A DNA stretch of 64,000 nucleotides, from positions 16,804,001 through 16,868,000 of the forward strand of contig OZ249436.1 in the NCBI GenBank assembly GCA_965235115.1. The letters run 5' to 3'. The notes under the pieces were generated by a model. It saw nothing but the letters and a program-made list of their open reading frames with translations. It did no database searches and was not told where the DNA came from. Below are positions 3,001 to 64,000 of this stretch, one piece after another. Each line of letters starts with the position of its first letter. The first letter of the stretch is position 1. The translations under genes were made by a program, and so were the position numbers. Source of the stretch: Laetmonice hystrix. Taxonomy: Eukaryota.

Positions 3001-6000
3001 GGATTACTTATAAAGGGAGTGGGTGGTGGCATACTAAACACAAGATACTAGAACGGATTACTTATAAAGGGAGTGGGTGGTGGCATACTAAACACAAGAT
3101 ACCAGAACGGATTACTTATAAAGGGAGTGGGTGGTGGCATACTAAACACAAGATACTAGAACGGATTACTTATAAAGGGAGTGGGCGGTGACATACTAAA
3201 CACAAGATACCAGAACGGATTACTTATAAAGGGAGTGGGTGGTGGCATACTAAACACAATATACCAGAACGGATTACTTATAAAGGGAGTGGGCGGTGGC
3301 ATACTAAACACAAGATACTAGAACGGATTACTTATAAAGGGAGTGGGTGGTGGCATAAGCATACTAAACACAAGAAACTAGAACGGATTACTTATAAAGG
3401 GAGTGGGCGGTGGCATACTAAACACAAGATACTAGAACGGATTACTTATAAAGGGAGTGGGCGGTGGCATACTAAACACAAGAAACTAGAACGGATTACT
3501 TATAAAGGGAGTGGGCGGTGGCATACTAAACACAAGATACTAGAACGGATTACTTATAAAGGGAGTGGGCGGTGGCATACTAAACACAAGATACTAGAAC
3601 GGATTACTTATAAAGGGAGTGGGTGGTGGCATACTAAACACAAGATACTAGAACGGATTACTTATAAAGGGAGTGGGCGGTGGCATACTAAACACAAGAT
3701 ACTAGAACGGATTACTTATAAAGGGAGTAGGCGGTGACATATTAAACACAAGATACTAGAACGGATTACTTATAAATTAAGGGAGTGGGTGGTGGCATAC
3801 TAAACACAAGATACTAGAACGGATTACTTATAAAGGGAGTAGGCGGTGGCATAGGTACTAAACACAAGATAGCAGAACGGATTACAAATGTACTTATAAT
3901 CATACACAAACAAGCATCAAGTATGATACACTCATTCTATTGCCAGTTCTAGGCAGAGCGAACTACGTACGTATTTAAAATAATGCAAACTTTTGTTAAC
4001 TGAACTTTTTCAACTGTAAAATTAAATACATATTAGCGGGGGGAATATTTGGGGGTTCAGCTGGGCGGGTTTGGGACCAGCAGTGGGTGATCATGGTTCA
4101 GCGTACGTCGCGCCACCTACCTGAGAGCGGAGGAACCGACGGGGTGATTCTCGTAAATCAGGGCGCTGTAGACAGGCATGGAGAACACGGGCACGTGGTC
4201 GTTAACGTCCTGATGAAGGAGAGAGAAGGACGGAAAGCCAATGAGAATTAGTCTGTTGGGGATTTCCATACTGAGGGGAAGGCTGTCATTAACCAAAACA
4301 CCGAATCCAGACCCTGACCTTCTCATCCCCAACCACACACCCGCACTCACGCACGCGCCCTCACCCACCCCCACACCTAGGCGTCGGAACCAGGGGCAGG
4401 GGGCGGTACCGCGTCAGTGGAAAGGCGGCCTTAGCTGAAACTCATATTTATCTGCCATATATATCAGCCTATTTTGTGAATGCGTAGGGCAGAAGAGGAC
4501 CAGATTCGGTCCAGGCTGACTTCAGCCCCCCCCCCCCTGGAAAAAGTATCTTCCGACGCTACTGATGCCATGTAGGCCTACACACCCCCTCACTCACATT
4601 CAAATTTCAAACGTCAAGCTATCCTATAAATTTAGAGATTTAGAGTACGAACTATTCCACGATTGAAAGCTTGTTGCAAACTGACCTTAATTGTGACCAC
4701 CACGGCCACAGTTTTGTTCTGGATAGTGTCAAGGTCATACGGCCTCCTGTTGTAGGCTACCACCACCAGGTGGTGCTGGTGGTCCTGATCGATTGTGACG
4801 TCACGTCTGGTGTAGAGAACGCCATTGGTGGCGTCCACCGCGAATAGGTCGTGAGGCGCATGCGCGAGGACGTACTGAACGACGGCGTTGTCGCCCTCGT
4901 CGGGGTCGACGGCCTGCAACACCAACATCATCAATACCAAAACAACATCAGCAATAGGCCTACCAACACCAATATCAAGACCAAAATCAACACCACCATC
5001 AATATCATCCAATACCAACACCAACATCGTCAACACCAACACCACCATCAAAACGATGTCTTTAACGTGCACGTCTGTACCGATCAGATTCTGGGTACAA
5101 AGAGTGGTATGACATGGCCTTGGTCGAAAAACCGTGGTATGACATGGCCATCGTTAGAAAACCGTGGTATGACATGGCCATCGTTAGAAAACCGTGGTAT
5201 GACATGGCCATCGTTAGAAAACCGTGGTATGACATGGCCATCGTTAGGAAACCGTGGTATGACATGGCCATCGTTAGAAAACCGTGATATGACATGACCT
5301 TGGTCGAAAAACCGTGGTATAGGCTAGCTATATGACATGGCCATCGTTAGAAAAACGTGATAGATCTATGACATGGCCTTGGTCGAAAAACCGTGCTATG
5401 ACACGCGACCTTCGGTGGAAAACCGTGGTATCAAATGGCCTTCGTTGGAAAACTGACTGACCAAAAGTAAAATTCAACCAAAATTCAGCCAACGTGGACG
5501 TCTGCATGGTTTAGGCCTGATAAACGCGCGCCGGCGAAGTTCAGGTATAGTAATCACTATAGGGGGCGCGGACTAACCTGAAGCTGTAGGATTCCACTAG
5601 GGGGCGCTCGCTCCGCCACCGTCACCTGGTAAGATTCCCTCTCGAAGGTTGGCGGGTGGTCGTTGATATCGTACACAAGCACGGTAACTGTTACCATGGT
5701 ACTGAGGGGAGGGACGCCACCATCCTGGGCAACTACCGTCAACTGGTGGGAGGGCGCCACCTCGCGATCAAGTTTGGCAGCAGTGTGCATGGTGCCCGTG
5801 TCGGGGTCGATGCTGAAGTACTGCCCGGCCCTAAAACAACAATAAACTCGATGTGAACTCCACGACTATAATATCCCACCCTAAAACAACAACAAACTCG
5901 TGAACTCCACTCCTATAATATCCCACCCTAAAACAACACCAAACTCGCTATAAACTCCACTACGATAATATCCCACCCTAAAACAACAACAAACTCGTGA

Positions 6001-9000
6001 ACTCCACTACTATAATATCCCACCCTAAAACAACAACAAACTCTGTGAACTCCACTACTATAATATCCCTCCCTAAAACAACAACAAACTCGCTGTGAGT
6101 TTCACTACTATAATATCCCAGCCTGAAAAACAAGGTCAGGAGATCAGATGTTACCGATGGAGAGAAACTGTTACAAACCTTTTCACAACCAAGGTCTCAA
6201 TGTTAGTGGATTACACACTTGTGTAATCTTATGGTATGCAAATGGTTGTAAACAAATGGCGTGTTAAATGACACGGTTATAAACAAAGGTGTGTGGTCAC
6301 AATGAGGTTTAAATAACTGGTGGGGTTTACAGGAAGGTCATAAACAAATGTTGTGTGGTCACAATGAGGTAGTGGTAGAGAAAGCGGTGGTAGACAATGA
6401 CAGTGGTAAAGAATGGGGTGGTAGACAAGAACAGTGATAGAGAATGGGGTGGTAGACAATGACAGTGGTGGAGAATGGGGTGGTAGACAATGACAGTGGT
6501 AGAGAATGGGATGGTAGACGACAGTGATAGAGAATAGGGTGGTAGACAATGACAGTGGTAGAGAATAGGGTGGTAGACAATGACAGTGGTAGAGAATGGG
6601 ATGGTAGACAATGACAGTGGTGGAGAATGGGGTGGTAGACAATGACAGTGGTAGAGAATGGGGTTGTAGACGAGAACAGTTATAGAGAATGGGGTGGTAG
6701 ACAATGACAGTGGTAGAGAATGGGATGGTAGACAATGACAGTGGTAGAGAATGGGGTGGTAGACAATGACAGTGGTAGAGAATGGGGTGGTAGACAATGA
6801 CAGTGGTAGAGAATGGGGTTGTAGACGAGAACAGTGATAGAGAATGGGGTGGTAGACAATGACAGTGGTAGAGAATGGGGTGGTAGACAATGACAGTGGT
6901 GGAGAATGGGGTGGTAGACAATGACAGTGGTGGAGAATGGGGTGGTACACAATGACAGTGGTAGAGAATGGGGTGGTAGACAATGACAGTGGTAGAGAAT
7001 GGGGTGGTAGACAATGACAGTGGTAGGGAATGGGATGGTAGACAAGAACAGTGGTAGAGAATGGGGTGGTAGACAATGACAGTGGTAGAGAATGGGATGG
7101 TAGACAAGAACAGTGGTAGAGAATGGGGTGGTAGACAATGACAGTGGTAGAGAATGGGGTGGTAGACAATGACAGTGGTAGAGAATGGGATGGTAGACAA
7201 TGACAGTGGTGGAGAATGGGGTGGTAGACAAGAACAGTGGTAGAGAATGGGGTGGTAGACAATGACAGTGGTAGAGAATGGGGTGGTAGACAATGACAGT
7301 GGTAGAGAATGGGGTGGTAGACAATGACAGTGGTAGAGAATGGGATGGTAGACAATGACAGTGGTAGAGAATGGGGTGGTAGACAATGACAGTGGTAGAG
7401 AATGGGGTGGTAGACAATGACAGTGGTAGAGAATGGGGTGGTAGACAATGACAGTGGTAGAGAATGGGATGGTAGACAATGACAGTGGTAGAGAATGGGG
7501 TGGTAGACAATGACAGTGGTAGAGAATGGGGTGGTAGACAATGACAGTGGTAGAGAATGGGGTGGTAGACAATGACAGTGGTAGAGAATGGGATGGTAGA
7601 CAATGACAGTGGTGGAGAATGGGGTGGTAGACAAGAACAGTGGTAGAGAATGGGGTGGTAGACAATGACAGTGGTAGAGAATGGGGTGGTAGACAAGAAC
7701 AGTGGTTGAGAATGGGATGGTAGACAAGAACAGTGGTAGAGAATGGGGTGGTAGACAATGACAGTGGTAGAGAATGGGGTGGTAGACAATGACAGTGGTA
7801 GGGAATGGGGTGGTAGACAAGAACAGTGGTAGAGAATGGGGTGGTAGACAAGAACAGTGGCAGACAAGGAGGTGGTAGGTGGGCAAGGTGGTAGACAAGG
7901 TAATACATGTACTTTGCAAGGTGCACAGTTACAGACACAATACGCCCCAAATATTTCATATCAATCAACATGCTGATATTGGCAGATACCTGTCGCTGGA
8001 GTCAGGGATGGCGGGAACATCTGGGTTAGGTAGGATACCTGGGATAGGTGTGGGTACCTGGGTCAGGTGTGGGTATACCTGGGTCAGTTGTGAGAACCTG
8101 GGATAGGTGTGGGTACCTGGCTCAGGTGTAGGATTTCTGGGTCAGGTGTGGGAACCTAGAATAAGTGTGGGTACCTGGGGCAGGTATGGCTACCTGAGGC
8201 AGGTGTGGGAATCTGGGGCAGGTGTGGGTTCCTGGGGCAGGTGTGGGAATTTGGGGCAGGTGTGGGTTCCTGGGGCAGGTGTGGGAATCTGGGGCAGGTG
8301 TGGGTTCCTGGGACAGGTGTGGGTTCCTGGGGCAGGTGTGGGTTCCTGGGGCAGTTGTGGGAATCTGGGGCAGGTGTGGGTTCCTGGGGCAGGTGTGGGT
8401 TCCTGGGGCAGGTGTGGACCAGGGAAAGGATACCTGGATCAGAGGGTTGGGGTCATCTGGGTTACCCTGAGCAGGTTTGGGGTCGGGTGGACTGTACCTG
8501 GATCAGGTGGGTATACCTGGATGAGGTGGGTATACCTGGATCAGGTGGGACGCCAGGTGGGAGATATCTATGCCAGGACTCATGGACCAACACCAGTTTG
8601 ATAGAACCAGTCAGTGCAGAGACCGGTCCGGTCACTATGCGTGATTTCATCATTCATTGGCATTCTCATCGTGCAGTTCAAGTCACAGCAGAGCAGAGTT
8701 GTGACAGGCGTAACGCTATAATGACTTCTGTTAACCGTCATCACCCAGTAAAATTTCTCTAATCTCCGTCTCTTTTTTCTGGCATGAATATTCTGGAAAG
8801 TCAGCCGTCTGTCAGCACTCTGTCTACTGCTCATGTTGTGTGTTAGTTTGTGTTTTTATCGGGCAGTCTTAATGTTCGCACTTACAAAAACGTTACCAAG
8901 CAACCGGAGGCATCGCTACAAAAAAGGATAGAGTAATGGCGTCAAGAAAAGTCTACACAGGTCGAACAGACGCTGACTGAGTTAAACCTCACGTTGCTAG

Positions 9001-12000
9001 TTATAAATATCTAATTTTACCTATCATTAGAATATCCCATGTCTGAATTAAAACAAATAGGCTATAGTGTAACGTGAACCTACGGTAACTATAGCAACCA
9101 TTCAACCTCACCCATATATACCTTACAGCCACCACGAGGTGTCCCTCTCCTCCTGAAAAACCTACAGGGTTAAAAACTACGGGCAAATGAAGATCATCAC
9201 CTCAGAATTAATGATAATGATCAAATGTAAGTTGTTCCCTGAGAAGCCAAGTAAAGGTTGGGTCTGCCACTTACCAGTTGCCGCCCAGCAGGTATTTTAA
9301 CTCCCCGTTGTACCCGGCGTCACCGTCGGTCGCCTGAAACACCAACACAGACAGGTCTTACGGCGTGAGTCGATAGGTGGCGTAATTAGGCTCTTCCATA
9401 GCCAGGTTTGACACCGTCGCAGGAGTCAATAGGTGCCACCAGGCCTTTCCACAGGCAGGTCTGACAGCAGTCGATAGGTGGCGCCAGGCTCTTCCACAGA
9501 CAGGTCTTATGGTGGAAGCCGGTAGGTGGCGCCAGGCCCTTCCACCGACAGGTCTGACGGTGGGAGCCGGTAGGCGGCGCCAGACTTTTCCACAGCCAGG
9601 TTTGACACTGACGCGGGAGTCAATAGGTGGAGCCAGGCTCTTCCACAGAGAGGTCTTACGGCGGGAGCCGGTAGGTGGCGCCAGGCTCTTTCACAAACAG
9701 GTCTGACAGGAGTCGATAGGTGGCGTCAGGCTCTGCCACACAGACAGGTCTGACAGCCGATAGATGGCGCTAGTGCCTTCAAGACAGCCAGTAGGCCTAC
9801 AGTGAAACAGTCTAGACAGACAGGTCCTGTGGGAGCCGATAAGTGGCGCCAGTGTAACACAGCCAGGTACAACCACTATTGCGTTGGATTTTGGCGACTT
9901 ATAAATTGACGTCCGTCTATTCGTCAGTTGTCCCCGTATTGCAAATACAGCAGTAATTGTGATGCCACCTGTCGGCCAGGTTCGCAGCACTGTATCTGGA
10001 AGAGGTAGCCTCCTAGCGCTGGTTTTGCACACTAATATTCTGTGAGCATTCAACATACATTTTGCCTGAGCTGTTGGACACACTACGGCAAGTGGCCGCA
10101 CGATCGAGTTACCTCCCTGAACATATTAACTTGGTACATTTTAGTACAGCCCCGTTTATACGTTACATATGGTATTCTTGACCTTACCTTGACCTGGCCG
10201 AGCCGCTGTCCGATTGGCATCTCTTCCCACACCCAGAACGTGTAGTCGGCCTCCCCAAACACAGGCGGGCTGTCATTGGTGTCTTCCACCCTCACAAACA
10301 CCACTGTCTGGGCCGTCTGAAACACCAACAACGGTTACTAACACATTAACACATGCTGCCAAAGCAGAACTGAAGGAAGTACACGTAATTAGAAGGTGGG
10401 GGATATCGCCTTGGTAACATCTTCTCCCACCGTTACCATAGTTACAACCCCAGCTACCATGGTTACAACCCTGCTGTGACCTACATGAATTCCATCGGTG
10501 ACTGTGACCTTGAGATTGTAGACGCTCGTGACCTCGCGGTCCAGAGGACGCCACAAGGTCAGTGCCCCACTGTTGCCATGGAGCAGGAACTGGTTGCCAT
10601 GGTCACCGTCAATAAGGTGGTAGGTGAGGTCAGATCCGTCTTCATCAGTCGCCTACAAACAGTAATCAGATTATCTGGTTTGTTATAAAAATGTCACATT
10701 TAAATTATTCTTCACTTTAACATACCATCACAGAGTTGTGTCAGTCAGATAAAGCGGTCAGTCTGGCTGAACATACCTGGAGCTCACAGAGCTATCAGTC
10801 AGATAAAGCGCTCAGTCTGGGTGGACATACCTGGAGCTCACAGAGCTGTGTCAGTCAGGTAACGCGCTCAGCCTGGGTGGACATACCTGGAGCTCACAGA
10901 GCTGTGTCAGTCAGGTAAAGCGCTCAGTCTAGGTGGACATACCTGGAGCTCACAGAGCTGTCAGTCAGATAAAGCGCTCAGTCTGGGTGGACATACCTGG
11001 AGCTCACAGAGCTATCAGTCAGATAAAGCGCTCAGTCTGGGTGGACATACCTGGAGCTCACAGAGCTGTCAGTGAGATAAAGCGCTCAGTCTGGGTGGAC
11101 ATACCTGGAGCTCACAGAGCTGTGTCAGTCACATAAAGCGCTCAGTCTGGGTGGACATACCTGGAGCTCACAGAGCTGTCAGTGAGATCAAGCGGTCAGT
11201 CTGGGTGGACATACATGGAGCTCACAGAGCTGTCAGTCAGATAAAGCGCTCAGTCTGGGTGGACATACCTGGAGCTCACAGAGCTGTGTCAGTCACATAA
11301 AGCGCTCAGTCTGGGTGGACATACCTGGAGCTCACAGAGCTGTCAGTCAGATAAAGCGCTCAATCTGGGTGGACATACCTGGAGCTCACAGAGCTGTCAG
11401 TCAGATAAAGCGCTCAGTCTGGGTGGACATACATGGAGCTCACAGAGCTGTGTCAGTCAGGTAACGCGCTCAGTCTGGGTGGACATACCTGGAGCTCACA
11501 GAGCTGTCAGTGAGATAAAGCGCTCAGTCTGGGTGGACATACCTGGAGCTCACAGAGCTGTCAGTCAGATAAAGCGCTCAGTCTGGGTGGACATACATGG
11601 AGCTCACAGAGCTGTGTCAGTGAGATAAAGCACTCAGTCTGGGTGGACATACATGGAGCTCACAGAGCTGTGTCAGTGAGATAAAGCACTCAGTCTGGGT
11701 GGACATACATAGAGCTCACAGAGCTGTGTCAGTCAGATAAAGCGCTCAGTCTGGGTGGACATACATGGAGCTCACAGGGCTGTGTCAGTCAGATAAAGCA
11801 CTCAGTCTGGGTGGACATACCTGGAGCTCACAGAGCTGTCAGTCAGATAAAGCGCTCAGTCTGGGTGGACATACCTGGAGCTCACAGAACTGTCAGTCAG
11901 ATAAAGCGCTCAGTCTGGCTGGACATACCTGGAGTTGGATGACGGTTGTGCCGTAAGACGACGCCTCGTTCACACTGGCCGAGTACGGTTCACCCTCAAA

Positions 12001-15000
12001 CTCTGGCGGGTGGTCGTTACCAGATAATACTGTTATGTTCACCATAGCGACTGCCGTCCTAGAGTACACATATACAAACTGTGTCAGAAAGCATTCAAGT
12101 CATTTAGATGATCATTCGTTTTTCTACACTTTAAGCTCTGGACCAAAGAAATGGTAACGGCTGAGAGGATAGCTCTGGTTCTACTTTAAAAGATCCTTGT
12201 CTGTCGTTGAGAAGACCGATATGTGGCCTTGTGGGGTGACTTATGCCTTATGAGGTCAGTATATGTCCCTGCGTACGCTGGTCAATATGAGATATCTCAC
12301 CTTGTGAGGTCAGAATTGGCCGGCTGGTCACTGGCCTGGACGGTAAGTATAAATGTGTGAGTCAGGGACTCAGCCAGTGACCTCTGAACATATAACCAGC
12401 CAGTGGACGAGTCCAGGCCAAAATACGTGGTTGCTCCATGGGTCCCGAACAGGATGGAGTACGTCACCCGGCCGTACGGACCTTGGTCCGCGTCCACGGC
12501 AAACACCTGGAACGTGAGGGTTAGAATTCAGACACCTGGAACATGAGAGTTAGAATTTCATACACCTGGGTGCGTTCCACAACTTGTCGTTAGCTTGTCG
12601 TATCGTAAACATCAATGTATTTTCAATGGGGATTTTTTTCGCACGACAGGGTTGCGATTGTTGTGAAAGGCACCCCTGGAATATGGGGATCATACACCTG
12701 TTGGAAGGGGTACTGACCTGTCCGACCACAGCGTCACGGGGGGCCGACCTGTTGACCAGGTAGGTGTAGGTGTTGGAGGGCGGACTCACCTGTCCAACCA
12801 CAGCGTCACGGGGGGGGGGGGCGACCTGTTGACAAGGTATAGGTGTAGGTGTTGGAGGGGGGACTCACCTGTCCAACCACAGCGTCACGGGGGGGGGCGA
12901 CCTGTTGACCAGGTAGGTGTAGGTGTTGGAGGGGGTACTGACCTGTCCGACCACAGCGTCACGGGGGGGCCGACCTGTTGACCAGGTACGTGTAGGTGTT
13001 GGAGGGGGTACTGACCTGTCCGACCACAGCGTCACGGGGGGCCGACCTGTTGACCAGGTAGGTGTAGGTGTTGGAGGGGGGACTCAACTGTCCAACCACA
13101 GCGTCACGGGGGGCCGACCTGTTGACCAGGTACGTGTAGGTGTTGGAGGGGGTACTGACCTGTCCGACCACAGCGTCACGGGGGGCCGACCTGTTGACCA
13201 GGTACGTGTAGGTGTTGGAGGGGGTACTGACCTGTCCGACCACAGCGTCACGGGGGGCCGACCTGTTGACCAGGTACGTGTAGGTGTTGGAGGGGGGACT
13301 CACCTGTCCGACCACAGCGTCACGGGGGGCCGACCTGGTGACCAGGTACGTGTAGGTGTTGGAGGGGGGACTCACCTGTCCAACCACAGCGTCACGGGAG
13401 GCCGACCTGTTGACCAGGTAGGTGTAGGTGTTGGAGGGGGTACTCACCTGTCCGACCACAGCGTCACGGGGGGCCGACCTGTTGACCAGGTAGGTGTAGG
13501 TGTTGGAGGGGGTACTCACCTGTCCGACCACAGCGTCACGGGGGGCCGACCTGTTGACCAGGTAGGTGTAGGTGTTGGAGGGGGTACTCACCTGTCCGAC
13601 CACAGCGTCACGGGGGGCCGACCTGTTGACCAGGTACGTGTAGGTGTTGGAGGGAGTGAAGACTGGGCTGTTATCGTTGACGTCCTCTAACCACACGTAC
13701 ACGTTGGCCGCCTGGCTTCGATACCGTTCAGCCGTCACACTCTCCTGCGCGTATACCTGGTGAACATGGGGGAACGTTAGGGAATCAATGAGCCGGTATG
13801 GGGGAAACACTGAGTCGGTATGGGGGAAACACTGAGCCGGTATGGGGGAAACACTGAGCCGGTATGGGGGAAACACTGAGCCTGCCTGGGGGAAACACTG
13901 AGCCGGTATGGGGGAAACACTGAGCCGGTATGGGGGAAACACTGAGCCTGCCTGGGGGAAACACTGAGCCGGTATGGGGGAAACACTGAGCCGGTATGGG
14001 GGAAACACAGGGAAGATATATAATAGAAGGGAGAAATAGTATTCAGGTGCGAGGGAGATTGAGATACGTACCTTGAGGAGCAGGTAGTCGGTGACCTCCT
14101 TGTCGAGGCCGGAGCTGTTTGTGACGAACACCATACCAGTGGTATCCTCCACCGCGAACGGTCCGCCCGACCCTTCCATCACGTATTCTAACTCGGCGTT
14201 AGTCCCCTGAAAACGGTCAGATATTATATCAGTGTCCGCTGAAAACGGTCAGATATTATATCAGTGTCCCCTGAAAACGGTCAGATATTAAATCAGTGTC
14301 CCCTGAAAACGGTCAGGTATCATATCAGTGTCCTCTGAAAACAGTCAGATATCATATCTGTGTCCCCTGAAAACGGTCAGATATCATATCAGTGTCCCCT
14401 GAAAACGGTCGGATATTATATCAGTGTCCCCTGAAAACGGTCAGATATTATATCAGTGTCCCCTGAAAACGGTCAGATAATTATTATATCAGTGTCCCCT
14501 GAAAACGGTCAGATATCATATCAGTGTTCCCTGAAAACGTGACCTGGCCCACCCTGCACTTACCACATCATATTGTGACCCGACCCACCTTGCACTACCC
14601 ACATCATTGTGTGGCTCATCTTGTACTTACCACGGTATTGCAGGCACGTACCCAGGATTGTGCTTAGAGGGGGGGTTCCATCAGGACAAGAGGGCTGCCC
14701 GGGGGGCCACCTGTGTTTTTGCACCAGTCGACCTGGGGACCGGAGGGGGCCGGGGGGGGGGGGTTCCGGAACCCCTGGAACCCCCCCCCCTGGGTACGTG
14801 CCTGGTATTGTGACCCACCCGATACTCACCACATCATTGTCGGTGGCGCGGACCTGTACCACCCTGTAGCCGACAGGAGAGTGTTCAGGAATGGTGACGT
14901 TGTAGATGAGACGCTCCATCTGAGGCGGGTGAATGTTAGCGTCCTCAACACTCACGATCAGGGTGGCTGTGCTGTAACGGTTCCTCGGGTTGTCCAACTG

Positions 15001-18000
15001 GTACGCCTGTCAATCACACGTCAATCAACCGTCACTCACACATCAATCACACACCAGTTAACCATAAATCAACCCGGCATAAAACTGGTACGCCTGTCAC
15101 TAACACGTCAATCAACCATCACTCGCACATCAATCACACATCAGTTAACCATAAATCAACCCATAAAACTGGTACGCCTGTCAATCACACGTCAATCAAC
15201 CATCACTCGCACATCAATCACACATCAGTTAACCATAAATCAACCCATAAAACTGGTACGTCTGTCAATCACACGTCAATCAACCGTCACTCACACATCA
15301 ATCACACATCAGTTATCCATCAATAAACAATCAGAGTCGGTCAACTTTCATAAGTTATGATATTATCATGGCCCTTATTTTAAGATTGATACATGATATA
15401 TGAGTTACTCTATGTATGATAGTGTTACAGGTGTTCTGCCGCCAGAGGATGCAGTTAATGAGATGATGATGGTGATCAGCTGACCTTGATGGTGATGATG
15501 AACTGAGCCCTGGCGGCTCGGTCCAGGATGTGACGTGGTAATACGAGCCCACTCGAGTGGTCAAGGTCAAAATACGTCACGCCGTCATGGGTGTGACCTG
15601 AAACAGAACGTAGTCACACGTCATACTACGTCACATTACGTCATACTACGTCATCACTACCAATCCAAGCCCCTCTCGTTAATCCTCAAGGTTACCTCCA
15701 TTCGCTCCATTAGGTCATATATAATATGTTAATATAATACTCGGTCAAGTTAATATGTCAAGTTTTGACCTTTGACTGGCTCACCTCCTTCTGCCTCGTA
15801 TCCCACGGTGGCATTAATGCCAAGGTCAAGGTCAAATGCCTGGATTGGTGGATGAGTCCGAAATACTTGGTCAATGATGCTGTAATTCTGCCGGTGAACA
15901 CAACGTGAAGGTGGAATGAACAACTGTTTGTAACCTCGATTTAATGGTTTCAAACCAGCCAGGATTAAACTGATCTAACATTCACAGACAAGGACCTTTG
16001 ATAGACATCTAAACTGTTCATAACTTTTACAAACTATCAGATATTTTTAAAGCTTTCAAAAAATATTTATGATCCCATTACTTCTCGGTATCTGTGGATG
16101 AATGAGCCAAGTAATGCCAGGCTGGTCTGTTCTGGTAACGACAGGTAGTTTACATAATGCCAGGTGTACCTGTTCTGGTAATGACAGGTAGTTTACGTAA
16201 TGCCAGGTGTACCTGTTCTGGTAACGACAGGTAGTTTACATAATGCCAGGTGTACCTGTTCTGGTAATGACAGGTAGTTTACGTAATGCCAGGTGTACCT
16301 GTTCTGGTAACGACAGGTAGTTTACATAATGCCAGGCTGGTCTGTTCTGGTAACGACAGGTAGTTTACGTAATGCCAGGTGTACCTGTTCTGGTAATGAC
16401 AAGTAGTAGACGTCCTCAGTGAATGCCGGGTTCTGATCGTCGCCGTCCGTCACGCTGAGAAACACCTGGGTCCAGTTAGAAAGGGGCGGCTCCCCCGTGT
16501 CCTATACAAGAAATTATCTTGGTCATACATTTCTTGGGGTTGGGACGTTTGTAAACAACACGTGGGGACCGCAGTCAGACACTTACTGTAGTTGTAACGT
16601 TGAGTACAAACACGTGCGGACCACAGTCAGACACTTACTGTGGTTGTAACGTTGAGTACAAACACGTGGGGACCGCAGTCAGACACTTACTGTGGTTGTA
16701 ACGTTGCGTACAAACACGTGGGGACCGCAGTCAGACACTTACTGTGGTTGTAACGTTGAGTACAAACACGTGGGGACCGCAGTCAGACACTTACTGTGGT
16801 TGTAACGTTGAGTACAAACACGCGGGGACCGTAATCATAGTCGAGTTTTTGTTGAAGTACAATAGCGCCCTCTGATGCCCCGCCCGTCATGGCGAACACA
16901 CCGCCCCCTGTTGTCTGAAACCACAACAAACCACAGTTCCCAATCGCTGGTGGTAGACGGGGGTGATACGTAATTATCCAGTAAGGGAGGGGGGCTGATC
17001 CTTCACAGGACTCCATGTTTAAAACTTACGAAAAATTTCAGAAAACATAAAACATAACACATTCATGAGTTTGAATTCTGTGCTCTGGGGTTTTAAAAAT
17101 TTAATTCTATGATTCCTCCTGCCCTCAACTCCAAGTTTCCCATTGGTTGTGCCCGACAGAAGGAGGTCGCAGCAAGTGGGGTCAGAGAAACGCTGACCTA
17201 CCTGAAGGTCATACCCGGCGATGCCACCGTCCACGTCGCCGTCGGTCGCCAACCCTCGCAGTGTGAACACGGTGGTGTAGACCGGAGTCAACTACACAAA
17301 GGTCAAACAGGGGTCAGGTCACCAGCTAACTCATACCACTCCTACTCACATCTATACGTCTACCCACTTATTTCAAGTGTATAGATATTCCATTCATATG
17401 TTGTTGACCGTTTGTTGGTCCTAGTTTCAGCCACGGCGCGGCTCTCTCCATACTCACCTCGTTGATATTTTTGAGGTAGGGGGCACACAGGAAGTAGGGG
17501 GCCTTATTGTTGACATCTTCAATGGCCACTCGGACGTCAGAGGTGACCTTAGAACACAGTTCAAGAGTTTTTACTGTCACACTTACATCACATATAAGGG
17601 ACACCCTAATAACGTCTTTCTGCTATGTGGTATCAGTGATATTTCTAAACTTACATCGTGGTTAACATGTTTTATACAGACTAGGTGATGGGTTTAGACT
17701 CTCACCTGGACCACGTCCCCACTGTGTAAGACCTCACACCTCAGGATCACTTGGATGGCTTTGATGGACACCTGGCGACAGAAAACGGCACCACGGACTT
17801 ACTTCAGACACACAGACAGGTATAAACTGACGTTAACACTCAGACAACTCTGTGATTTAGCGGTTACTTCCGTCTGCGGATTGACTTACAGGGGTGGAGG
17901 TGTCCGTGGATTGACTTACAGGGGTAGAGGTGTCTGAGGATTGAGTTACTGGAGTGGAGGTGTCCGAGGATTGACTTACCGGGGTGGAGGTGTCTGAGGG

Positions 18001-21000
18001 TTGACTTACAGGGGTGGAGGTGTCCGAGGATTGACTTACCGGGGTGGAGGTGTCTGAGGGTTGACTTACAGGGGTGGAGGTGTCCAAGGATGGACTTACC
18101 GGGGTGGAGGTGTCCGAGGATTGACTTACCGGGGTGGAGGTGTCTGAGGGTTGACTTACAGGGGTGGAGGTGTCCAAGGATGGACTTACCGGGGTGGAGG
18201 TGTCCAAGATTTGACTTACCGGGGTAAAAGTGTCCGAGGATTCACTTACCGGGGCGGAGGTGTCCGAGGATTGACTTACCGGGGTGGAGGTGTCCGAGGA
18301 TTGACTTACCGGGGTGGAGGTGTCTGAGGATTGACTTACCGGGGTGGAGGTGTCTGAGGATTGACTTACAGGGGTGAAGGTGTCTGAGGATTGACTTACC
18401 GGGGTGGAGGTGTCTGAGGATTGACTTACTGGGGTGGAGGTGTCTGAGGATTGACTTACTGGGGTGGAGGTGTCCGTGGATTGACTTACCGGGGTGGAGG
18501 TGTCTGAGGATTGACTTACTGGGGTGGAGGTGTCTGAGGATTGACTTACTGGGGTGGAGGTGTCTGAGGATTGACTTACCAGGGTGGAGGTGTCTGAGGA
18601 TTGACTTACTGGGGTGGAGGTGTCTGAGGATTGACTTACCGGAGCGGAGGTCGGCCGTCTGGTGTAGTCACAGCTCAACTGTTCGTTAGTGTTCGGTATG
18701 ATCTGCAAATAGACAACACGTACGTGACCGATACCTATCGGGTGTTAGAAACAAGACATCTTTTGAACGTGATCCTAGGTCTCAATTTGAAGAAGGAATT
18801 CTCTACTCATTGCGCCCATCACTAGGCGCGTTGGGTGAAACTCACTTCTTGAAAAAGGAGGGACCAAGAGATTTCTCTCTAATTGAAGAAGAAGAGAACA
18901 TGCATATGGCTGGTATCACTGACCGGGTCTGTGCGAGGGTTGAGGAGGTTCAGATCTAGACTCCGTGACAGGATGATTTGGTAGGCCCGCGCTCCTGTCT
19001 GACGTAGACTCAGGTAACCTTGGAACCGACTTGTGTACGGCGAGTCCAGCTGGATGCTCCGAGCAGAGGACTCAAACGTGAACAGGACCGAGCCTGGAAA
19101 TGGAAACATTTTGTGGTACAGTTGTGTTTTGAGGTCTGTGAAGATAGTCACTTATTCCATACTCCCGATTCGACCCCGAGGTTGGATTTCTTTGAGTGGG
19201 CGCCAGGCGCATATGCCCCAGTCCCATATAAGCACGGATGGACACGGCAGTCCCGGAAAGTGCCGGATCCCGCCGGATCAACATCCGGGACGATCCGTGC
19301 TCTTTTGGGGGTTTTTGAGCGTCGACGGTCGTCCAACGACCATCACGCCGGTGGCAACACGGCAGCACGGCAGCACGACGAACCCGTACAAACACGGAAA
19401 AACACGGCAGCAACACGACAGAGACACGGGCAGCCCCGGATAAACACGGACCAACACGGCATCTACACGGACCATCCCGGACCTACACGGCGATCCATGA
19501 CCTCGGGGTCGAATCGGGAATAAGGAATAAGTAACTAACTTCCCAGACCTCGTGTTCTTGAGGACTTTGTGATGTCTTACATTAAGATATAAAATAATCA
19601 GACAGACGAACGGAGATAGTTTTTGTAGGCCCACAAGACCGTAGAACTTTGGCTACATTTATCAGTCACAGCATGTCAAACGTTGGGGGGGGGGGTTAAT
19701 GCTCCGATTTGTTTTTCATGGAATTGGTTTCAGTAATGACTATATAATTAGTAATTTCCTAGAGATGTTTATTTATTTGGATTCCGAAACAAGGCAGTAT
19801 AGGGTAGTGTCGAGGCACATGAATGGTGTACGCATTTTACATCGCGATGTCCCCCATGTACAAACATGTATACTCTAGGCCAACTAAAGCCGGGAACACA
19901 TCTGATGCGATGCGACGCGATTATGAAAAGCTCCTAATGGAACACACCTGAAGCTGTACGTCGCTGGACCTTCAGGTGTGTTCACACTCGCTGAAAACAA
20001 TTAGGAGCTTTTCATAATCGCGACGCATCGCGTAGCATTGCGTCAGGTGTGTTCTCCGCTTAATCAGTGCTTCTCATTCCATCCCTCCCCCACCAAACCT
20101 CACTCATTTACTAGTAATTAGACACTTACTTTCCCCCACAGGATGTTTATACCGTTACCATGAAAACACCAACATGGAAACCCTAGAAGTAGCCCTGCCT
20201 TGGCATTTTTACTAGTTGCCATGGCGACGGCAACGTGACACCTGTTTCTATGCCGCCTCATTAAAATTCCAGGTAATGGTTGAATAGCAATGACCACAGC
20301 CGGTAGGTTATCAAAGTCACCGGTTGGTAAAACATGCCTGCGCACCTCAGCGTACAACTCTAGTTCTATAGGCCTGCAGCAATCAGAAACGTTCACTTGA
20401 CCACCACGTGAGACCCGTGAAATTAGCGTGATCTACATTCCGGCCAAACATCTGTTCATTCTATAGATGTTCAAACTGTAGATCTACAACTATTATAGTA
20501 ATAGTGGTGTCCATTTCATAAAACACGTCTTGATGTTACTGTAACGTTACCGTAAACGACGTCACCTGACGTGATACATGGCGTAACCCTTACGTTATTA
20601 ATTGTGACGTCATAGGTGACTACTTACCGACCGGTGTGTTCTCGGGTTCCTCCGTGTAGAGTGACGGGCACGGATTCTGTTGACCTAAAACACAAAGTAT
20701 CGAGGTAAACGGTCAGCACTGGCGGGGTATACTGTTAAAATGTAGGCCTACAGTAAACTATTGATGACCACTCAAAGGTCAGCACTGGCGGGATCTACTG
20801 TTAAAATGTAGGACTACGGTAAACTGCTGATGTCTACTCAACGGTCAGCACTGGCGGGATCTACTGTTAAAATGTAGGACTACGGTAAACTGCTGATGTC
20901 TACTGAACGGTCAGCGCTGGCGGGATCTATTGTTAAAATGTAGGACTACGGTAAACTGCTGATGTCTACTCAACGGTCAGCACTGGCGGGATCTACTGTT

Positions 21001-24000
21001 AAAATGTAGGACTACGGTAAACTGCTGATGTCTACTGAACGGTCAGCGCTGGCAGGATCTACTGTTAAAATGTAGGACTACGGTAAACTGCTGATGTCTA
21101 CTGAACGGTCAGCGCTGGCGGGATCTATTGTTAAAATGTAGGACTACGGTAAACTGCTGATGTCTATACTGAATGGTCAGCACTGGCGGGATCTACTGTT
21201 AAAATGTAGGACTACGGTAAACTGCTGATGTCTACTGAACGGTCAGCACTGGCGGGATCTACTGTTAAAATGTAGGACTACAGTAAACTATTGATGACCA
21301 CTGGACGGACTGGGTGTATTCAATGTTAAAAGAGTGATGAATAAAGCGACACAGTCTGCCGTGACCGCAAGCAACCAGAGGGCCCACCTAACGGGCTACG
21401 CATCCTTATAGTTATCAAATACAACACTAGGTGGCTGTCAGCATGTTTTTAGGGACGACAGGTTCGCTTTAAATTATATCATCAGTCGGGTTAAAGGGTT
21501 ATATCATTTTATCTTCCTGCGAGTCAAGTATGTACACTGTTCGAAGGTACTGAGACGAAAATGATATTTTAAGATATACATTATCATCAGGTGTTGCTAC
21601 TTATTTAGGATCCATCAGTGCCGGATTATTAATGGCAAATAGTTAACTCGTAAAGTAAATTAACCATGTTTACCCGAGCCATACTTTAGCGAACTGACGT
21701 AACCGTTCATATATCAAGGAAATTTGCAATTAATCAACTTTAGATAAAGATGCTGTAAAAAGCAATGAATGCTGTTTATGAATCCTCACATTGTATAACC
21801 AGTATAACACATCGTGTGTGCGCCAACAGTTCGTCCAGGGTACTGGAGGTCAGGGTGGGTCGATGATCCGACCTGGTCGACGGGGTGGGGGTTAGGGGTA
21901 ACTAACATTGACACAGCCGGGGTAACAACACATTCAGACCTGGCCGGGATCAATCAAGTTATTAGTCACCCTTTCTACCTGTCATCCCCCCAACCCTACC
22001 CTTTATACATCCTTCGTCCCAACAAATCGTTTCCCTTGGTCCTATCTAACACCATATTTGATATTATCTTTAGTGAATACTGTTTTGAAGAATTTTCATC
22101 CTCAGTCGTCAACAAAACTATTCCATAACATGATAATTTTAATGCAAGCTAACATAACGACAGAACTATGCTGTGTCAAGTCGGTTGACTTTGGAACGTG
22201 GGAAAAGTGAGAGGGTTCATTGAGAACATTGTGGTCAGTCGTCCGTGACGGCTGCGGTCCGATTGTACGAGTCACAATGGGGTCTGTGGACTGTGACGTC
22301 ATAGACAAACAGGTGTCGCGGTGGCTGGGGAGGTGATCACAGGTACAGAGGCAGAACCAAGTACTCGGTGCATACCGGCCCATGAGATCACAGGTACAGA
22401 GAGAGGGAACCCAGTACTCGGTGTATACCGGCCCATGAGATCACAGGTACAGAGACAGGGAACCCAGTACTCGGTGTATACCGGCCCATGAGATCACAGG
22501 TACAGTGACAGAACCCAGTACTTGGTGTATACCGGCCCATGGGATCCCAGGTACAGAGAGAGAACCAAGTACTTGGTGTATACCGGCCCATGAGATCACA
22601 GGTACAGAGACAGAACCAAGTACTCGGTGTATACCGGCCCATGGGGGCAGGTACAGAGAGAGAACCAAGTACTCGGTATATACCGGCCCATGAGATCACA
22701 GGTACAGAGACAGAACCCAGTACTTGGTGTATACCGGCCCATGAGATCACAGGTACAGAGACAGAACCCAGTACTTGGTGTATACCGGCCCATGGGATCC
22801 CAGGTACAGAGACAGAACCAGTACTCGGTGTATACCGGCCCATGGGATCCCAGGTACAGAGAGAGAACCAGGTACTCGGTGTATACCGGCCCATGAGATC
22901 ACAGGTACAGAGACAGAACGAAGTACTCGGTGTATACCGGCCCATGAGATCACAGGTACAGAGACAGAACCAAGTACTCGGTGTATACCGGCCCATGAGA
23001 TCCCAGGTACAGAGAGAGAGAACCCAGTACTCGGTGTATACCGGCCCATGGGATCCCAGGTACAGAGAGAGAACCCAGTACTCGGTGTGTACCGGCCCAT
23101 GAGATCCCAGGTACAGAGACAGAACCAGTACTTGGTGTATACCGGCCCATGGGATCCCAGGTACAGAGAGAGAACCCAGTACTCGGTGTGTACCGGCCCA
23201 TGAGATCACAGGTACAGAGACAGAACCAGTACTCGGTGTGTACCGGCCCATGAGATCACAGGTACAGAGACAGAACCCAGTACTTGGTGTATACCGGCCC
23301 ATGTGATCCCAGGTACAGAGAGAGAACCCAGTACTCGGTGTATACCGGCCCATGGGATCCCAGATACAGAGACAGAACCAGTACTCGGTGTGTACCGGCC
23401 CATGAGATCACAGGTACAGAGACAGAACCAGTACTCGGTGTATACCGGACCATGAGATCACAGGTACAGAGAGAGAGAGAACCCAGTACTCGGTGTATAC
23501 CGGCCCATGAGATCACAGGTACAGAGACAGAATGAAGTACTCGGTGTATACCGGCCCATGAGATCACAGGTACAGAGACAGAACCCAGTACTTGGTGTAT
23601 ACCGGCCCATGGGATCCCAGGTACAGAGACAGAACCAGTACTCGGTGTATACCGGCCCATGGGATCCCAGGTACAGAGAGAGAACCAGGTACTCGGTGTA
23701 TACCGGCCCATGAGATCACAGGTACAGAGACAGAACGAAGTACTCGGTGTATACCGGCCCATGAGATCACAGGTACAGAGACAGAACCAAGTACTCGGTG
23801 TATACCGGCCCATGAGATCCCAGGTACAGAGAGAGAGAACCCAGTACTCGGTGTATACCGGCCCATGGGATCCCAGGTACAGAGAGAGAACCCAGTACTC
23901 GGTGTGTACCGGCCCATGAGATCACAGGTACAGAGACAGAACCAGTACTTGGTGTATACCGGCCCATGGGATCCCAGGTACAGAGAGAGAACCCAGTACT

Positions 24001-27000
24001 CGGTGTGTACCGGCCCATGAGATCACAGGTACAGAGACAGAACCAGTACTCGGTGTGTACCGGCCCATGAGATCACAGGTACAGAGACAGAACCCAGTAC
24101 TTGGTGTATACCGGCCCATGTGATCCCAGGTACAGAGAGAGAACCCAGTACTCGGTGTATACCGGCCCATGGGATCCCAGATACAGAGACAGAACCAGTA
24201 CTCGGTGTATACCGGCCCATGAGATCACAGGTACAGAGACAGAACCAGTACTCGGTGTATACCGGACCATGAGAGGCCCAATGTCCCCCTCACCCGCCCC
24301 AAACCGTCCTTGACTATAAACAGCTCGGTTTACTACTCGCCGTTTAAGGTTGAGTTACTCATAGCTATTTACGAGGAGCACTTTGGAATCATTCAAGGGG
24401 TACACAAACATTGTTGTACAGGGCACTCAGTCACTGTCTCCAACCAACAACCTCAACCTTCTTTACCCCACGTCCACCCTCCTCGCGACCAGCACACCTA
24501 GCCAACCCCCGAGGTCGGCGCCACCTATCATACAAGAGGCCAGGCCCCACACCCACCATCTCCACATCATCTTGACCCTCATACAAGAGGCCAGGCCCCA
24601 CACCCACCATCTCCACATCATCTATCACTTCATACAAGAGGCTAGGCCCCACACCCACCATCTCCACATCATCTATCACCTCATACAAGAGGCTAGGCCC
24701 CACACCCACCATCTGCACATCATCTATCACCTCATACAAGAGGCTAGGCCCCACAACCACCATCTGCACATCATCTATCACCTCATACAAGAGGCTAGGC
24801 CCCACACCCACCATCTGCACATCATCTATCACCTCATACAAGAGGCTAGGCCCCACACCCACCATCTGCACATCATCTATCACCTCATACAAGAGGCCAG
24901 GCCCTCACAATAACAATCTCCACATAATCTATCACCTCATACAAGAGGCCAGGCCCCCACAATAACGATCTCCACATCATCCATCACCTCATACAAGAGA
25001 CAGGCCCCACAATAACCATCTCCACATCATCCATCACCTCATACAAGAGACAGGCCCCACAATAACCATCTCCACATCATCAATCACCTCATACAAGAGA
25101 CAGGCCCCACAATAACGACCTCCACATAATCTATCACCTCATACAAGAAGCCAGACTCCACACTAACGATCTCCACATTATCTGGACCCAATCCATCAAA
25201 AGTGTCATTTTAAATTTCATGACCGTTACCATCAATTTCAAACAAATTTAAATAGCAGCAACAATACAGGTTGAGTAAAAAAACGCTCCTTTTTATTTCG
25301 TATTTTTCCCCTCGAAATATAAAAAAATGATTCTACATCTTGTCGGACCTCGAGACCGGCGGCGTTTTGCTGATTGCCGATTTATATAATCAATTAAGGT
25401 CATGGAGGTTTCCAAGATATGTAAAGTTTTTTTTTCTTTTGTCAACTGACGAGGACATATTGATATATCACAGATCACAGTTTACAAACTGGTTGCCATG
25501 GTAACTCAGTAAAGCGTACAAGGCTGGATCAGTAATACGCTGGAACCCTTCACTCCGCGAAGCCTGTGACCAGCCTGCCGTACCGGGTTTTCTCACAGGG
25601 TTACGAAGTTATGACAGGTATGCATGTGTGAGGGTGACCCCCCACACCCTAGCACCCCTACACCCCCCCCCCCCCCCTCACACCCCCAACCACAAGCATG
25701 GCCGACCACAACAATCACAGCCGACCACGTCACGTGACCCGACCGCAGTCACGTCACCTTGGCTCGGGTCAGGCGTCAAGGGTCAAAGACACCGACTGCC
25801 CGTGGACTGGATCGGTGTATCCCGCCCCTACCATAGGATTCACACCCCTACCATGGGATTTACACCCCTACCATAGGATTCACACCCCTACCGGATGGTG
25901 CAAGCCCCTACCATTGGATTCACGTCCCTGCCATGGGATTCACACCTCTACCATTGGATTCACGTCCCTGCCATGGGATTCACACCTCTACCATATGTTC
26001 ACACCCTTACCGTACGATTCACACCCCAAACTATAGGGCTGACAATAACAATATACAATATTATACAATACAATACACCCCACCCCACCCCAATGACACC
26101 CCACCTCCAGGGCTAATACCCAACCTCCAGGGCTGGCATCCAACCTCCAGGTCTGACACCCCACCTCCAGGCCTGACACCCCACCTCCAGGCCTGACACC
26201 CCACTTCCAGGGCTGACACCCAACCACCAGGACTGACACCCCACCTCCAGGGCTGACACCCAACCTCCAGGGCTGACACCCCGCCTCCAGAGCTGACACC
26301 CCACCTCCAGGGCTGACACCCCACCTCCAGGGCTGATACCCCGCCTCCAGAGCTGACACGCCACCTCTAGGGCTGACATCCAACCACCAGGACTGACACC
26401 CCACCTCCAGGGCTGACATCCAACCTCCAGGGCTGACACCCCACCTCCAGGGCTGACACCCCGCCTCCAGAGCTGACACCCCACCTCCAGGGCTGACACC
26501 CCACCTCCAGGGCTGATACCCCGCCTCCAGAGCTGACACGCCACCTCTAGGGCTGACATCCAACCACCAGGACTGACACCCCACCTCCAGGGCTGACATC
26601 CAACCTCCAGGGCTGACACCCCACCTCCAGGCCTGCACCCCACCTCCAGGGCTGACACCCCACCTCCAGGGCTGACACCCCACCTCCAGGGCTGACACCC
26701 CACCTCCAGGCCTGACACCACGCCTCCAGGGCTGACATCCAACCTCCAGGTCTGACACCTCAACTCCAGGCCTGACACCTTACCTCCAGAGCTGACACCC
26801 CACCTCCAGGGCTGACATCCAACCTTTAGGGCTGACACCCCACCTCCAGGGCTGATACCCCACCTCCAGAGCTGACACCCCACCTCCAGGGCTGAGATCA
26901 AAGTTTCATGAGTTCAACCCCGAGTGGTATGGTGACTCACTGAGCGGCAAACAAGTGTCACGTGTCAATCCTTGGATCAATTCCTCTCTCCCGCCAGGGA

Positions 27001-30000
27001 CGCAGCCCCCCCCTGGCTGTATTCTCCCACGGTGTGGGGTAGCGGTAACGTTAGATCCTTACCTGAGACGGCGTGGTCAGCGGCCACCCCCGGCGGTCCG
27101 AGCACCACCAGCATCACCAGGGCCATCACTTGGATCTCTCCGTCCATGCCGGTCAGATGGACACGGTCCCCAGCATCCTTACACAGTTCCCCCCACACAC
27201 GGGTCCGTCCACGCGATAAGTGACCACCCGCTCACTGTTCAAACACCACTCAATCCTGTCCAGTAACTTCAGGTATATCCTACACCCTGTGACATATCCA
27301 ACGTTCCGATCCGTATCCCTGGTAACGAGTCCGTCGTGAACCACGTCTGCCCCCTCTCACGTCCCGCGCGTCTCTCCCCGTCCCAGGCGGATTCTGAACA
27401 CTACACTAAGCGACGCTAAACTCCATCAATTATTGACAAACCAACCAAAGCCTCCCCCCCCCCTCCTGACCGACACACTCCACTGCGCATGCCACAAGTG
27501 GCCACCTACCAGAACGGTTACTGTGGCAACGCTTTTTCCACCGCGTGAACGCCGAGAACCAAGGTGTGTGTTGAGCGGATGACTGAGCTGCCACGAGCTG
27601 CAGCTATGCTGCCTAGAATACCATTATATCTTCAGCTAGAATACCATATCTTCACCTTTTAAAGACATGTCTTTTTTTATAAAAAAAAAAACTCTTTTCA
27701 TTTAATAAACTCAGGCAGGCGGTAACACGGGCAAAGTCCATTAGTCAAAATTACGAATTCACATAAAGGTAGTTAATTAAGCTGGAACATTTCCGAAATC
27801 AGTGAAACAAGCAAACTTTAACCGATCCCACCCCAGTCAGTCCCAGTGAAACAAGCAAACTTTACCCTGTCCCACCCCAGTCAGTCCCAGTGAAACAAGC
27901 AAACTTTAACCAATCCCACCCCAGTCAGTCCCAGTGAAACAAGCAAACTTTAACCGATCCCACCCCAGTCAGTCCCAGTGAAACAAGCAAACTTTAACCG
28001 ATCCCACCCCAGTCAGTCCCATTGAAACAAGCAAACTTTAACCAATCCCACCCCAGTCAGTCCCAGTGAAACAAGCAAACTTTAACCGATCCCACCCAGT
28101 CAGTCCCAGTGAAACAAGCAAACTTTAACCGATCCCACCCCAGTCAGTCCCAGTGAAACAAGCAAACTTTACCCTGTCCCACCCAAGTCAGTCCCAGTGA
28201 AACAAGCAAACTTTAACCAATCCCACCCCAGTCAGTCCCAGTGAAACAAGCAAACTTTAACCGATCCCACCCCAGTCAGTCCCAGTGAAACAAGCAAACT
28301 TTAACCAATCCCACCCCTGTCAGTCCCATTGAAACAAGCAAACTTTAACCGATCCCACCCCAGTCAGTCCCAGTGAAACAAGCAAACTTTAACCGATCCC
28401 ACCCCAGTCAGTCCCAGTGAAACAAGCAAACTTTAACCGATCCCACCCCAGTCAGTCCCAGTGAAACAAGCAAACTTTAACCAATCCCACCCCTGTCAGT
28501 AGAACAGTCAGGTGTAGCGACCCACTGCCGTCAGTGTCACCACATAATTATAATTACCGATCGATTGTCCTAAATCAGTCATTACGAGTACTCCTCGATC
28601 GTCGCTGACCCCGAGGGCTCCTGGCCGACATGAGTCCCACCGACAAGGCCAATACTCGCCTGGCATCCACAACTGGGCTCTGACCTAGATAATTCTGACA
28701 TGATTATGATACAGGTAGTTTAACGAGGTAAACTCCTGAATGATCTCTGCCGACCACAAACACATACCTCCAGGGCTGACACCCCAACCTCCAGGGCTGA
28801 AACCCCACCTCCAGGGCTGGCACCCCAACCTCCAGGCCTGACACACAACCGCCAGGCCTGACACCACAACCTCCAGGCCTGACACTTCAACCTCCAGGGC
28901 TGACACCCCAACCTCCATGGCTGACACTCCACCTCCAGGCCTGACACCCCAACCTCCAGGACTGACACAACCTCCAAGCCTGACACCCCAACCTCCAGGG
29001 CTGACACCCCAACCTCCAGGGCTGACACCCCAACCTCCAGGCCTGACACCCCAACTTTCAGGGCTGACACAACCTCCAGGGCTGACACCCCAACCCAGGC
29101 CTCACACCCCAACCTCCATGGCTAACACCCCAACCTCCAGGCCTCACACAACTTCCAGGGCTGACACAACCTGTGACTGTGGCACAAGTGGCCGGGCTGG
29201 TCCTACATGAGGTGACGTGATTATGGCACAAGTGGTTGGGTTGGTCCTACATAAGGTGATGTGATTATGGCACAAGTGGTTGGGCTAGTACTAGATGCGG
29301 TGACGTGATCGGGCACAAGTGGCCGGGATGGCACTGCATGAGGTGATGTGATTACGGCACAAGTGGCCGGGATGGCACTACAGGAGGTGGTGTGATTATG
29401 ACACTACATGAGGTGATGTGTGTATGGTACAAGTGGCTGAGATGGCACTACAGGAGGTGATGTGATTATGACACTACATGAGGTGATGTGATTATGGCAC
29501 AAGTGGCTGGGATGGCACTACAGGAGGTGATGTGATTATGACACAAGTGGCCGGGATGGCACTACAGGAGGTGATGTGAGTATGGTACAAGTGGCTGGAA
29601 TGGCACTACAGGAGGTGATGTGATTATGACTCTACAGGAGGTGATGTGATCATGATACTGTTAATGAGAGTAGATAAAGGTGACGTGATTAAGGCAGCTG
29701 GTCATGCAAACCCTGACGATTACGCCAATACCAATGTTAGCATAACGGTCCTGACAGTGATGGAACTCGTACTGATGACGCAGGTAATAATAATAATATC
29801 TTTATTCACACATTAAAAATGCATATTAATGGTAAAAAATCATGGCAATACGAAAAGAAGAGGGGCGGCTGGTGATGTCACAGGAGGTAATGGTGATGGC
29901 ACAGGTAGTGTTGATGGCACAGGTAATGTTGATGGCACAGGTAATGTTGATGGCGCAGGTAATGGTGCTGGCGCAGGTAATGGTGATGGTGCAGGTAATG

Positions 30001-42737: not shown

Positions 42738-43066
42738 GTGTGAACCTGGACAGAAACACACATTTCACAGGTGTAAGCTGGGACAGAAACACACATTAAA
42801 GGGGTGTGAACTGGGACAGAAACACACATTAAACGGGTGTGAACTGGGACAGAAACACACATTAAACGGGTGTGAACTGGGACAGAAACACACATTAAAC
42901 GGGTGTGAACTGGGACAGAAACACACATTAAACGGGTGTGAACTGGGACAGAAACACACATTAAACGGGTGTGAACTGGGACAGAAACACACATTAAACG
43001 GGTGTGAACTGGGACAGAAACACACATTAAACGGGTGTGAACTGGGACAGAAACACACATTAAACG
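42738..43066. repeat. 33-bp minisatellite (~10 copies) upstream of ADAMTS
   Basis: GTGTGAACTGGGACAGAAACACACATTAAACGG. Confidence 0.95.

Positions 43067-43524: not shown

Positions 43525-64000
<20,476 letters not shown>

Follow-up and report, generated by a model that had tools for sequence, protein, structure and literature searches.

A 64,000-nt stretch of the Laetmonice hystrix genome (hereafter the window; G000:C1:16804001-16868000 in an assembly of 627 Mb and 35 contigs) contains 12 tandem arrays whose repeat unit copies an exon-intron boundary of one of two neighbouring genes, one resembling cadherin-23 and the other encoding an ADAMTS protein. These arrays have the anatomy that defines mirage minisatellites, and we consider it probable, on balance, that they arose by random tandem amplification in short introns and were tolerated through splicing at the exon-proximal copy of each site. 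A preliminary description of this DNA had set this reading beside a second one, in which amplification is nucleated preferentially at splice junctions. Tolerated random amplification turned out to be the better supported of the two, with 5.5 junction arrays expected by chance for 10 scored in the window and 4.0 for the 6-7 scored in an independent sample, and preferential nucleation was not demonstrated. The same description knew of no earlier account of such arrays at this density, yet they correspond to the 'mirages' of amphioxus reported in excerpts of PMC3087553: the structure type is already described, and the window contributes instances of it rather than a new principle.

Tandem arrays that copy exon-intron boundaries

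To set exon edges, we combined open frames with profile coordinates and with GT/AG pairs that keep the frame, and exons are numbered as in the preliminary description, with models for cadherin exons 4-23 (E4-E23) and ADAMTS exons 8-18 and 20. Arrays were called by Tandem Repeats Finder, and k denotes the count of exon nucleotides within an array. In all 12 cases the unit consists of exon sequence plus the adjoining splice signal, the array runs without a break into the authentic exon and most copies keep the signal (Table 1). Each boundary to which an array had been assigned is indeed covered, that of E4 as judged by splice signals and reading frame only, which are good there, a homology search having given this exon no support. 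The arrays are built head to tail from units of 15-84 nt in 2.1-26 copies. They had been described as starting at the exon edge, and this proved incorrect, as the real starts lie 2-63 nt inside the exon; splice-site copies, quoted as 3-26 per array, were counted here as 2-26, the lowest count being that of E15 (2; 3 by eye). By contrast, the statement that the copy yielding the family-typical protein is the exon-proximal one holds, and it follows by construction: because only the exon-contiguous copy can yield the normal protein, the polarity of the arrays is built into the way in which they are defined.

As had been proposed, the 12 units are mutually unrelated in sequence, the top pairwise local alignment score being 15 versus a shuffle maximum of 17. 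Elsewhere in the window, the arrays at 26094-26895 and 28766-29167, about 2 kb apart, have one 20-21-nt unit in cyclically permuted form (Tandem Repeats Finder consensus), and the arrays of the window are therefore not all unrelated.

Several junction arrays have features of their own. With a unit length that is a multiple of three, the E4 array (30 nt) keeps the reading frame open across 26 of its 26 units, and the E14 array (72 nt) does so across 8.8 units; the sole match of the latter in the genome is itself. The E13 unit contains CTGAC, a pyrimidine run and CAG, and exon 12, whose acceptor is copied in the E12 array, is conserved in the open reading frame of a relative (P0008). Two units of the E9 array, read by eye, have lost the GT in addition to the five with intact donors. 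At ADAMTS exon 13 the Tandem Repeats Finder call covers only 59508-59539, 27 nt beyond the donor, and the four donors from 59472 onwards were read from the sequence. A stop codon lies 7-60 nt past the donor in 5 donor arrays, and use of a decoy site at these would probably lead to clearance by nonsense-mediated decay. In the ADAMTS exon 8 array, every 71-nt unit also has a donor-like GTGAGT some 41 nt past its AG and in this respect resembles a possible mini-exon.

Table 1. Modelled genes and junction-covering arrays, in window coordinates; a slash marks the exon-intron boundary
Feature	Coordinates	Strand	Exon	Unit (nt)	k (nt)	Splice signal and copies, or basis
Cadherin-23-like gene, exons 4-22	4121..18640	-				Pfam Cadherin, hidden Markov model, splice/frame; exon 23 starts at 68
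Cadherin E4 donor array	17872..18651	-		30	12	GTAAGT donor, 26 GT copies
Cadherin E8 donor array	16557..16831	-	16914-16795	52	37	5 identical ACA/GTAAGT
Cadherin E9 donor array	16112..16407	-	16501-16385	43	23	5 intact donors
Cadherin E12 acceptor array	14996..15328	-	15006-14830	84	11	4 AG copies
Cadherin E13 acceptor array	14202..14539	-	14206-14072	32	5	10 AG copies
Cadherin E14 donor array	12699..13654	-	13756-13592	72	63	CAG/GTGAGT, 12 GT copies
Cadherin E15 acceptor array	12503..12569	-	12506-12301	29	4	CCAG/GTGT, 2 copies counted (3 by eye)
Cadherin E16 donor array	10739..11934	-	12058-11929	54	6	22 GT copies
Cadherin E20 acceptor array	5829..6133	-	5830-5578	50	2	6 TTTTAG/GG copies
ADAMTS gene, exons 8-18 and 20	54211..63309	+				Reprolysin, cysteine-rich, TSP1 and spacer domains
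ADAMTS exon 8 acceptor array	53271..54234	+	54211-54316 (encodes ...HEIGH)	71	24	At least 11 AG copies
ADAMTS exon 13 donor repeat	~59472..59539	+	59417-59480	15		4 copies CTCAG/GTAGG
ADAMTS exon 20 donor array	63281..64000+	+	End at 63309	41	29	At least 16 GT copies; reaches window end

Other arrays lie beside junctions rather than over them, and the earlier remark that more arrays begin within tens of bases of a junction was confirmed: array ends fall 16, 23, 11 and 8 nt 5' of the acceptors of cadherin E11, E14, E19 and E23, respectively. Among these four arrays of the window, only the one at E14 has homology to the junction, of a marginal and weak kind (shuffle fraction 0.0145), and of two near-acceptor arrays at myosin loci, that of M4 has clear homology to the junction and that of M6 none. 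The array that stops 8 nt before the E23 acceptor (77-189, 31-nt unit) contains acceptor-like TTTATCTGCAG motifs; its homology to the true exon 23 junction was not significant (shuffle fraction 0.19).

Support from DNA reads

A search for sequencing runs over 9200-18700 returned three DNA-like runs, all of one sample, which is possibly the assembled one, and no RNA run. Short-read contigs cover 13700-17860 fully, and several borders between unique and array sequence are bridged (by pieces such as 13979-14231, 14807-15025 and 15434-16153), that of the E13 array being among those spanned. We regard an assembly artefact, in the arrays themselves or in their lengths, as very improbable. It is true that the three runs share one sample, that contigs break within arrays and that alternative joints in the 32-nt E13 array skip 122 and 250 nt, which may reflect alleles or graph collapse in that sample; nevertheless, the borders within 13700-17860 are bridged by contigs from three runs, depth is elevated in array bins, the anatomy matches at independent loci, and a published amphioxus case was verified by re-sequencing, according to an excerpt of PMC3902484.

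Within cadherin intron 12, the summed contig depth from the three runs reaches thousands (up to ~29,600) at 14534-14811, versus ~50 nearby. This segment holds long G and C runs and probably represents an element that is of low complexity or highly repeated.

Array density and intron length

Merging of 108 Tandem Repeats Finder rows gave 58 arrays that together take up 26,619 nt (41.6% of the window). Because arrays make up only 10.0% of the DNA in 26 other genic loci of the genome (0-64% per locus), the window is unusually repeat-rich. Array density is strongly regional, and it may be higher toward chromosome ends. Two dynein loci near contig ends, L021 (G000:C18:27779201-27784700) and L032 (G000:C13:1158101-1163800), consist of tandem arrays to 56% and 64%, respectively, and in 9 of 15 dynein loci the array share is at most 1%. 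Within the window, many further arrays occur at 19-47 kb, away from modelled exons, at equal density.

The introns are short. In the window, the 14 array-free introns measure 158-476 nt (median 248 nt; 6 of them, also 158-476 nt, are among the 19 modelled cadherin introns), the 15 array-bearing introns have a median of 229 nt once their arrays are collapsed, and the 52 array-free introns of the sampled loci have a median of 224 nt.

Junction coverage compared with random seeding

We compared the number of junction-covering arrays with a geometric null in which seeds fall uniformly in collapsed introns. For a unit of u nt in an intron whose length is Lc once its arrays are reduced to one unit, a seed then straddles a junction with probability 2(u-1)/(Lc+u-1). 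The premise is that a seed inside an intron is harmless and that a junction-straddling seed is likewise harmless provided that the exon-proximal copy is spliced. The window test was run on the 29 introns modelled in full and on their 26 arrays, each at its shortest period. Arrays at 19-53 kb were left out, as were those at ADAMTS exons 8 and 20, where one end of the intron is undefined. Ten of the 26 arrays cover a junction and 16 cover none, versus 5.53±1.79 expected to do so (ratio 1.81, P=0.017). The expectation rises to 6.50 with the best-scoring period (1.5-fold excess, P=0.058) and falls to 4.92 when the collapsed length is floored at 158 nt (P=0.008); the observed count becomes 9 should cadherin exon 4 prove spurious. 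The window had, however, been selected post hoc, for the junction arrays themselves.

The independent sample comprised 11 myosin-head and 15 dynein AAA_6 clusters from a Pfam family search of the genome (209.7 kb), chosen without regard to repeats, and introns were defined wherever the profile coordinates of two exons run on continuously. It yielded 67 introns, 15 of which carry 21 arrays; myosin arrays in M3, M7, M9 (3693-3844 and 8642-9130), M10 and M11 were dropped because the neighbouring exon was undetectable. With 3.99±1.65 junction-covering arrays expected, 6 of 21 were observed by Tandem Repeats Finder coordinates (P=0.18) and 7 of 21 when homology was followed beyond the called array end (P=0.07), a ratio of 1.5-1.75. 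Taken by itself, this unbiased sample does not reach significance. Window and sample together have 16-17 junction-covering arrays among 47, versus 9.5 expected (P=0.009-0.003, or P=0.025 with the best-scoring window periods), a combined value that leans on the window picked after the fact. The geometric null covers ~55-65% of the junction arrays, that is, over half of them, and the residual 1.5-2-fold excess is possible but unproven. A genome-wide test of junction enrichment was not found in the literature, within the limited collection searched.

A further seven junction-covering arrays were left uncounted, as they sit at exon edges where the far side of the intron is undefined. One of them is the largest donor array across the window and the sampled loci, at L032 (plus strand, 102-1222), where 31 copies of a 36-nt unit hold a dynein exon end and a strong AAG/GTAAGG donor. 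In another, at L027 (G000:C7, plus strand, 4261-4784), eight copies of 67 nt each carry an acceptor and 43 nt of conserved coding sequence for dynein AAA1 (NPGYAGRQELPENL), and the last copy alone runs on into the exon.

A true enrichment would follow if tandem amplification started preferentially at junctions, through a transcription-, R-loop- or splicing-linked bias or through AGGT microhomology. The observed-to-expected ratios, the combined count and the seven uncounted arrays all point in this direction. On the other hand, the junction can stand anywhere in the unit (k/u 0.04-0.88, which fits a uniform spread; Kolmogorov-Smirnov p=0.33), and this therefore weighs against nucleation at the junction; moreover, arrays are just as dense away from modelled exons, the excess in the window shrinks under the best-scoring period, the window was chosen after the fact and the sample amounts to 21 arrays only. 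Taken together, these points lead us to regard preferential nucleation as unlikely.

Even less probable, in our judgement, is that selection keeps the junction arrays since their decoy sites recruit U1 or U2AF and thereby strengthen recognition of the adjacent exon. Such selection would fit the modest junction excess (ratio 1.5-2.0) and the intactness of most copies, which score the same as the authentic site (E8 donors identical in 5 of 5 copies, GT kept in 22 of 22 at E16 and 26 of 26 at E4). High identity is, however, expected of young or homogenised arrays whatever their function, the site has been lost in one E14 unit as well as in the two E9 units mentioned above, and the authentic sites beside arrays score 0.5-8.4 and are hence not uniformly weak.

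Comparison with known systems

The founding paper on mirages is reportedly that of Canestro et al. 2002. Excerpts of two later reports (PMC3087553; PMC3902484) describe amphioxus mirages at 5' as well as 3' boundaries; the genes named are Adh3, the globin genes BflGb6 and BflGb9, troponin C and PGBD5, the units measure 10-160 bp and splicing is normal. Like the arrays of the window, those in the excerpts are minisatellite-like tandem duplications whose unit lies across the exon-intron boundary; they involve both 5' and 3' boundaries, most of their copies retain AG or GT, and they extend on the intron side. They differ in that the excerpts report single genes, whereas in the window two adjacent genes carry 12 arrays of up to 26 copies each, a greater density, and in that normal splicing and length instability were demonstrated in amphioxus. 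As for the host, the best named matches of a myosin exon of this genome, among proteins of up to 2000 aa, come from arthropods and molluscs (65-75% identity), and none is from a lancelet.

A second parallel is the 37-bp variable number tandem repeat in intron 7 of human F7, in which the exon-intron junction falls within the first repeat element (Borensztajn et al. 2006, PMC1557585). As reported in excerpts of that paper, 5-9 identical donors follow exon 7, of which only the most upstream is used although the others are functional, and the authors propose a rule of the most upstream donor based on oriented scanning (PMC1557585). The likeness lies in an authentic donor followed by identical pseudo-sites, as at E8 and at E16, where 16 of 22 donors equal the authentic one in score. 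F7 as described in these excerpts is one locus with 5-9 donor copies, whereas the present arrays occur at many loci, include acceptors as well as donors and reach 26 copies (31 elsewhere in the genome). Unlike the amphioxus and F7 repeats, the arrays of the window are known from DNA sequence alone.

In the Rogers model, introns are gained when a tandem duplication takes in an AGGT proto-splice site. This model likewise has tandem duplication make extra usable splice sites from existing sequence, but there a duplication within an exon makes a new intron, whereas the arrays here lengthen existing introns. We considered intron gain of this type for the window and rejected it, as the arrays lie between consecutive cadherin- or ADAMTS-domain exons with continuous profile coordinates and a new intron is unneeded.

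Origin and splicing of the arrays

On the reading that we favour, the genome would generate locus-specific tandem arrays with 10-140-nt units at a very high rate that is regionally uneven. With introns of about 150-480 nt in the absence of arrays, a random seed of 20-80 nt would often straddle an exon-intron junction because the introns are so short. Duplication of a straddling seed would leave the authentic exon untouched along with its splice site, the extra copies of the site would fall on the intron side, and the gene would stay functional since the spliceosome would take the copy nearest to the exon. The array could then grow by slippage or unequal exchange, as other minisatellites do, and its spread would be neutral. 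Choice of the proximal copy at both ends of an exon is what exon definition would bring about: pairing of the nearest 3' and 5' splice sites across the exon would account for donors and acceptors, and 5'-to-3' oriented scanning would account for donors only. For donors, proximal choice would agree with what was reported for human F7 intron 7.

Several points weigh against this account. First, for introns of this length the usual view is recognition by intron definition, and this would favour the distal donor, the wrong one. Second, use of the exon-proximal copy is deduced from gene structure and not read from RNA. Third, decoy use at the in-frame and open E4 and E14 donor arrays would evade nonsense-mediated decay, since later-donor use there would insert in-frame peptide repeats and not a premature stop. 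Fourth, copy numbers come from one assembly, and the short-read contigs support borders and depth, not array length. Finally, junction-covering counts lie above the null in both data sets (ratio 1.5-2.0, combined P 0.003-0.025), and a factor beyond geometry may be at work. We accordingly entertain, only tentatively and as something we would sooner doubt than accept, that junction arrays are over-represented ~1.5-2-fold beyond intron geometry, by way of junction-favoured amplification or selection that retains decoy sites. If this over-representation were true, the genome would hold thousands of natural arrays of identical donors or acceptors, and these would expose the rule by which the spliceosome chooses among up to 31 equal sites.

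With 12 arrays of near-identical donors and acceptors in two neighbouring genes, and more in other genes, this DNA amounts to a natural experiment in which RNA could show whether the exon-proximal copy always wins, and does so equally for donors and acceptors; a possible leak of the in-frame E4 and E14 arrays into protein is a further question for RNA data. The null of random seeds in collapsed introns can also serve as the baseline for any claim of junction enrichment.

Gene models and a microsatellite

The cadherin gene was identified by Pfam Cadherin matches, and its top named relatives are cadherin-23 proteins at 39-46% identity, among proteins of up to 2000 aa searched. Direct alignment of mammalian and crustacean cadherin-23 proteins was ambiguous across the repeated cadherin domains and was set aside in favour of a cadherin-domain hidden Markov model built from cadherin-23 relatives, which matched 15 minus-strand stretches at E<1, from 17547 to 4692. 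For the ADAMTS gene, plus-strand Pfam matches to reprolysin, ADAMTS_CR_2, TSP_1 and the spacer span 54177-63289; a longer homologue was not found with the spacer exon as query, and the Pfam coordinates of open reading frames were used instead. A (CAC)n microsatellite of ~60 copies (62739-62918) lies inside a long open frame just 5' of a TSP1-encoding stretch of this gene.

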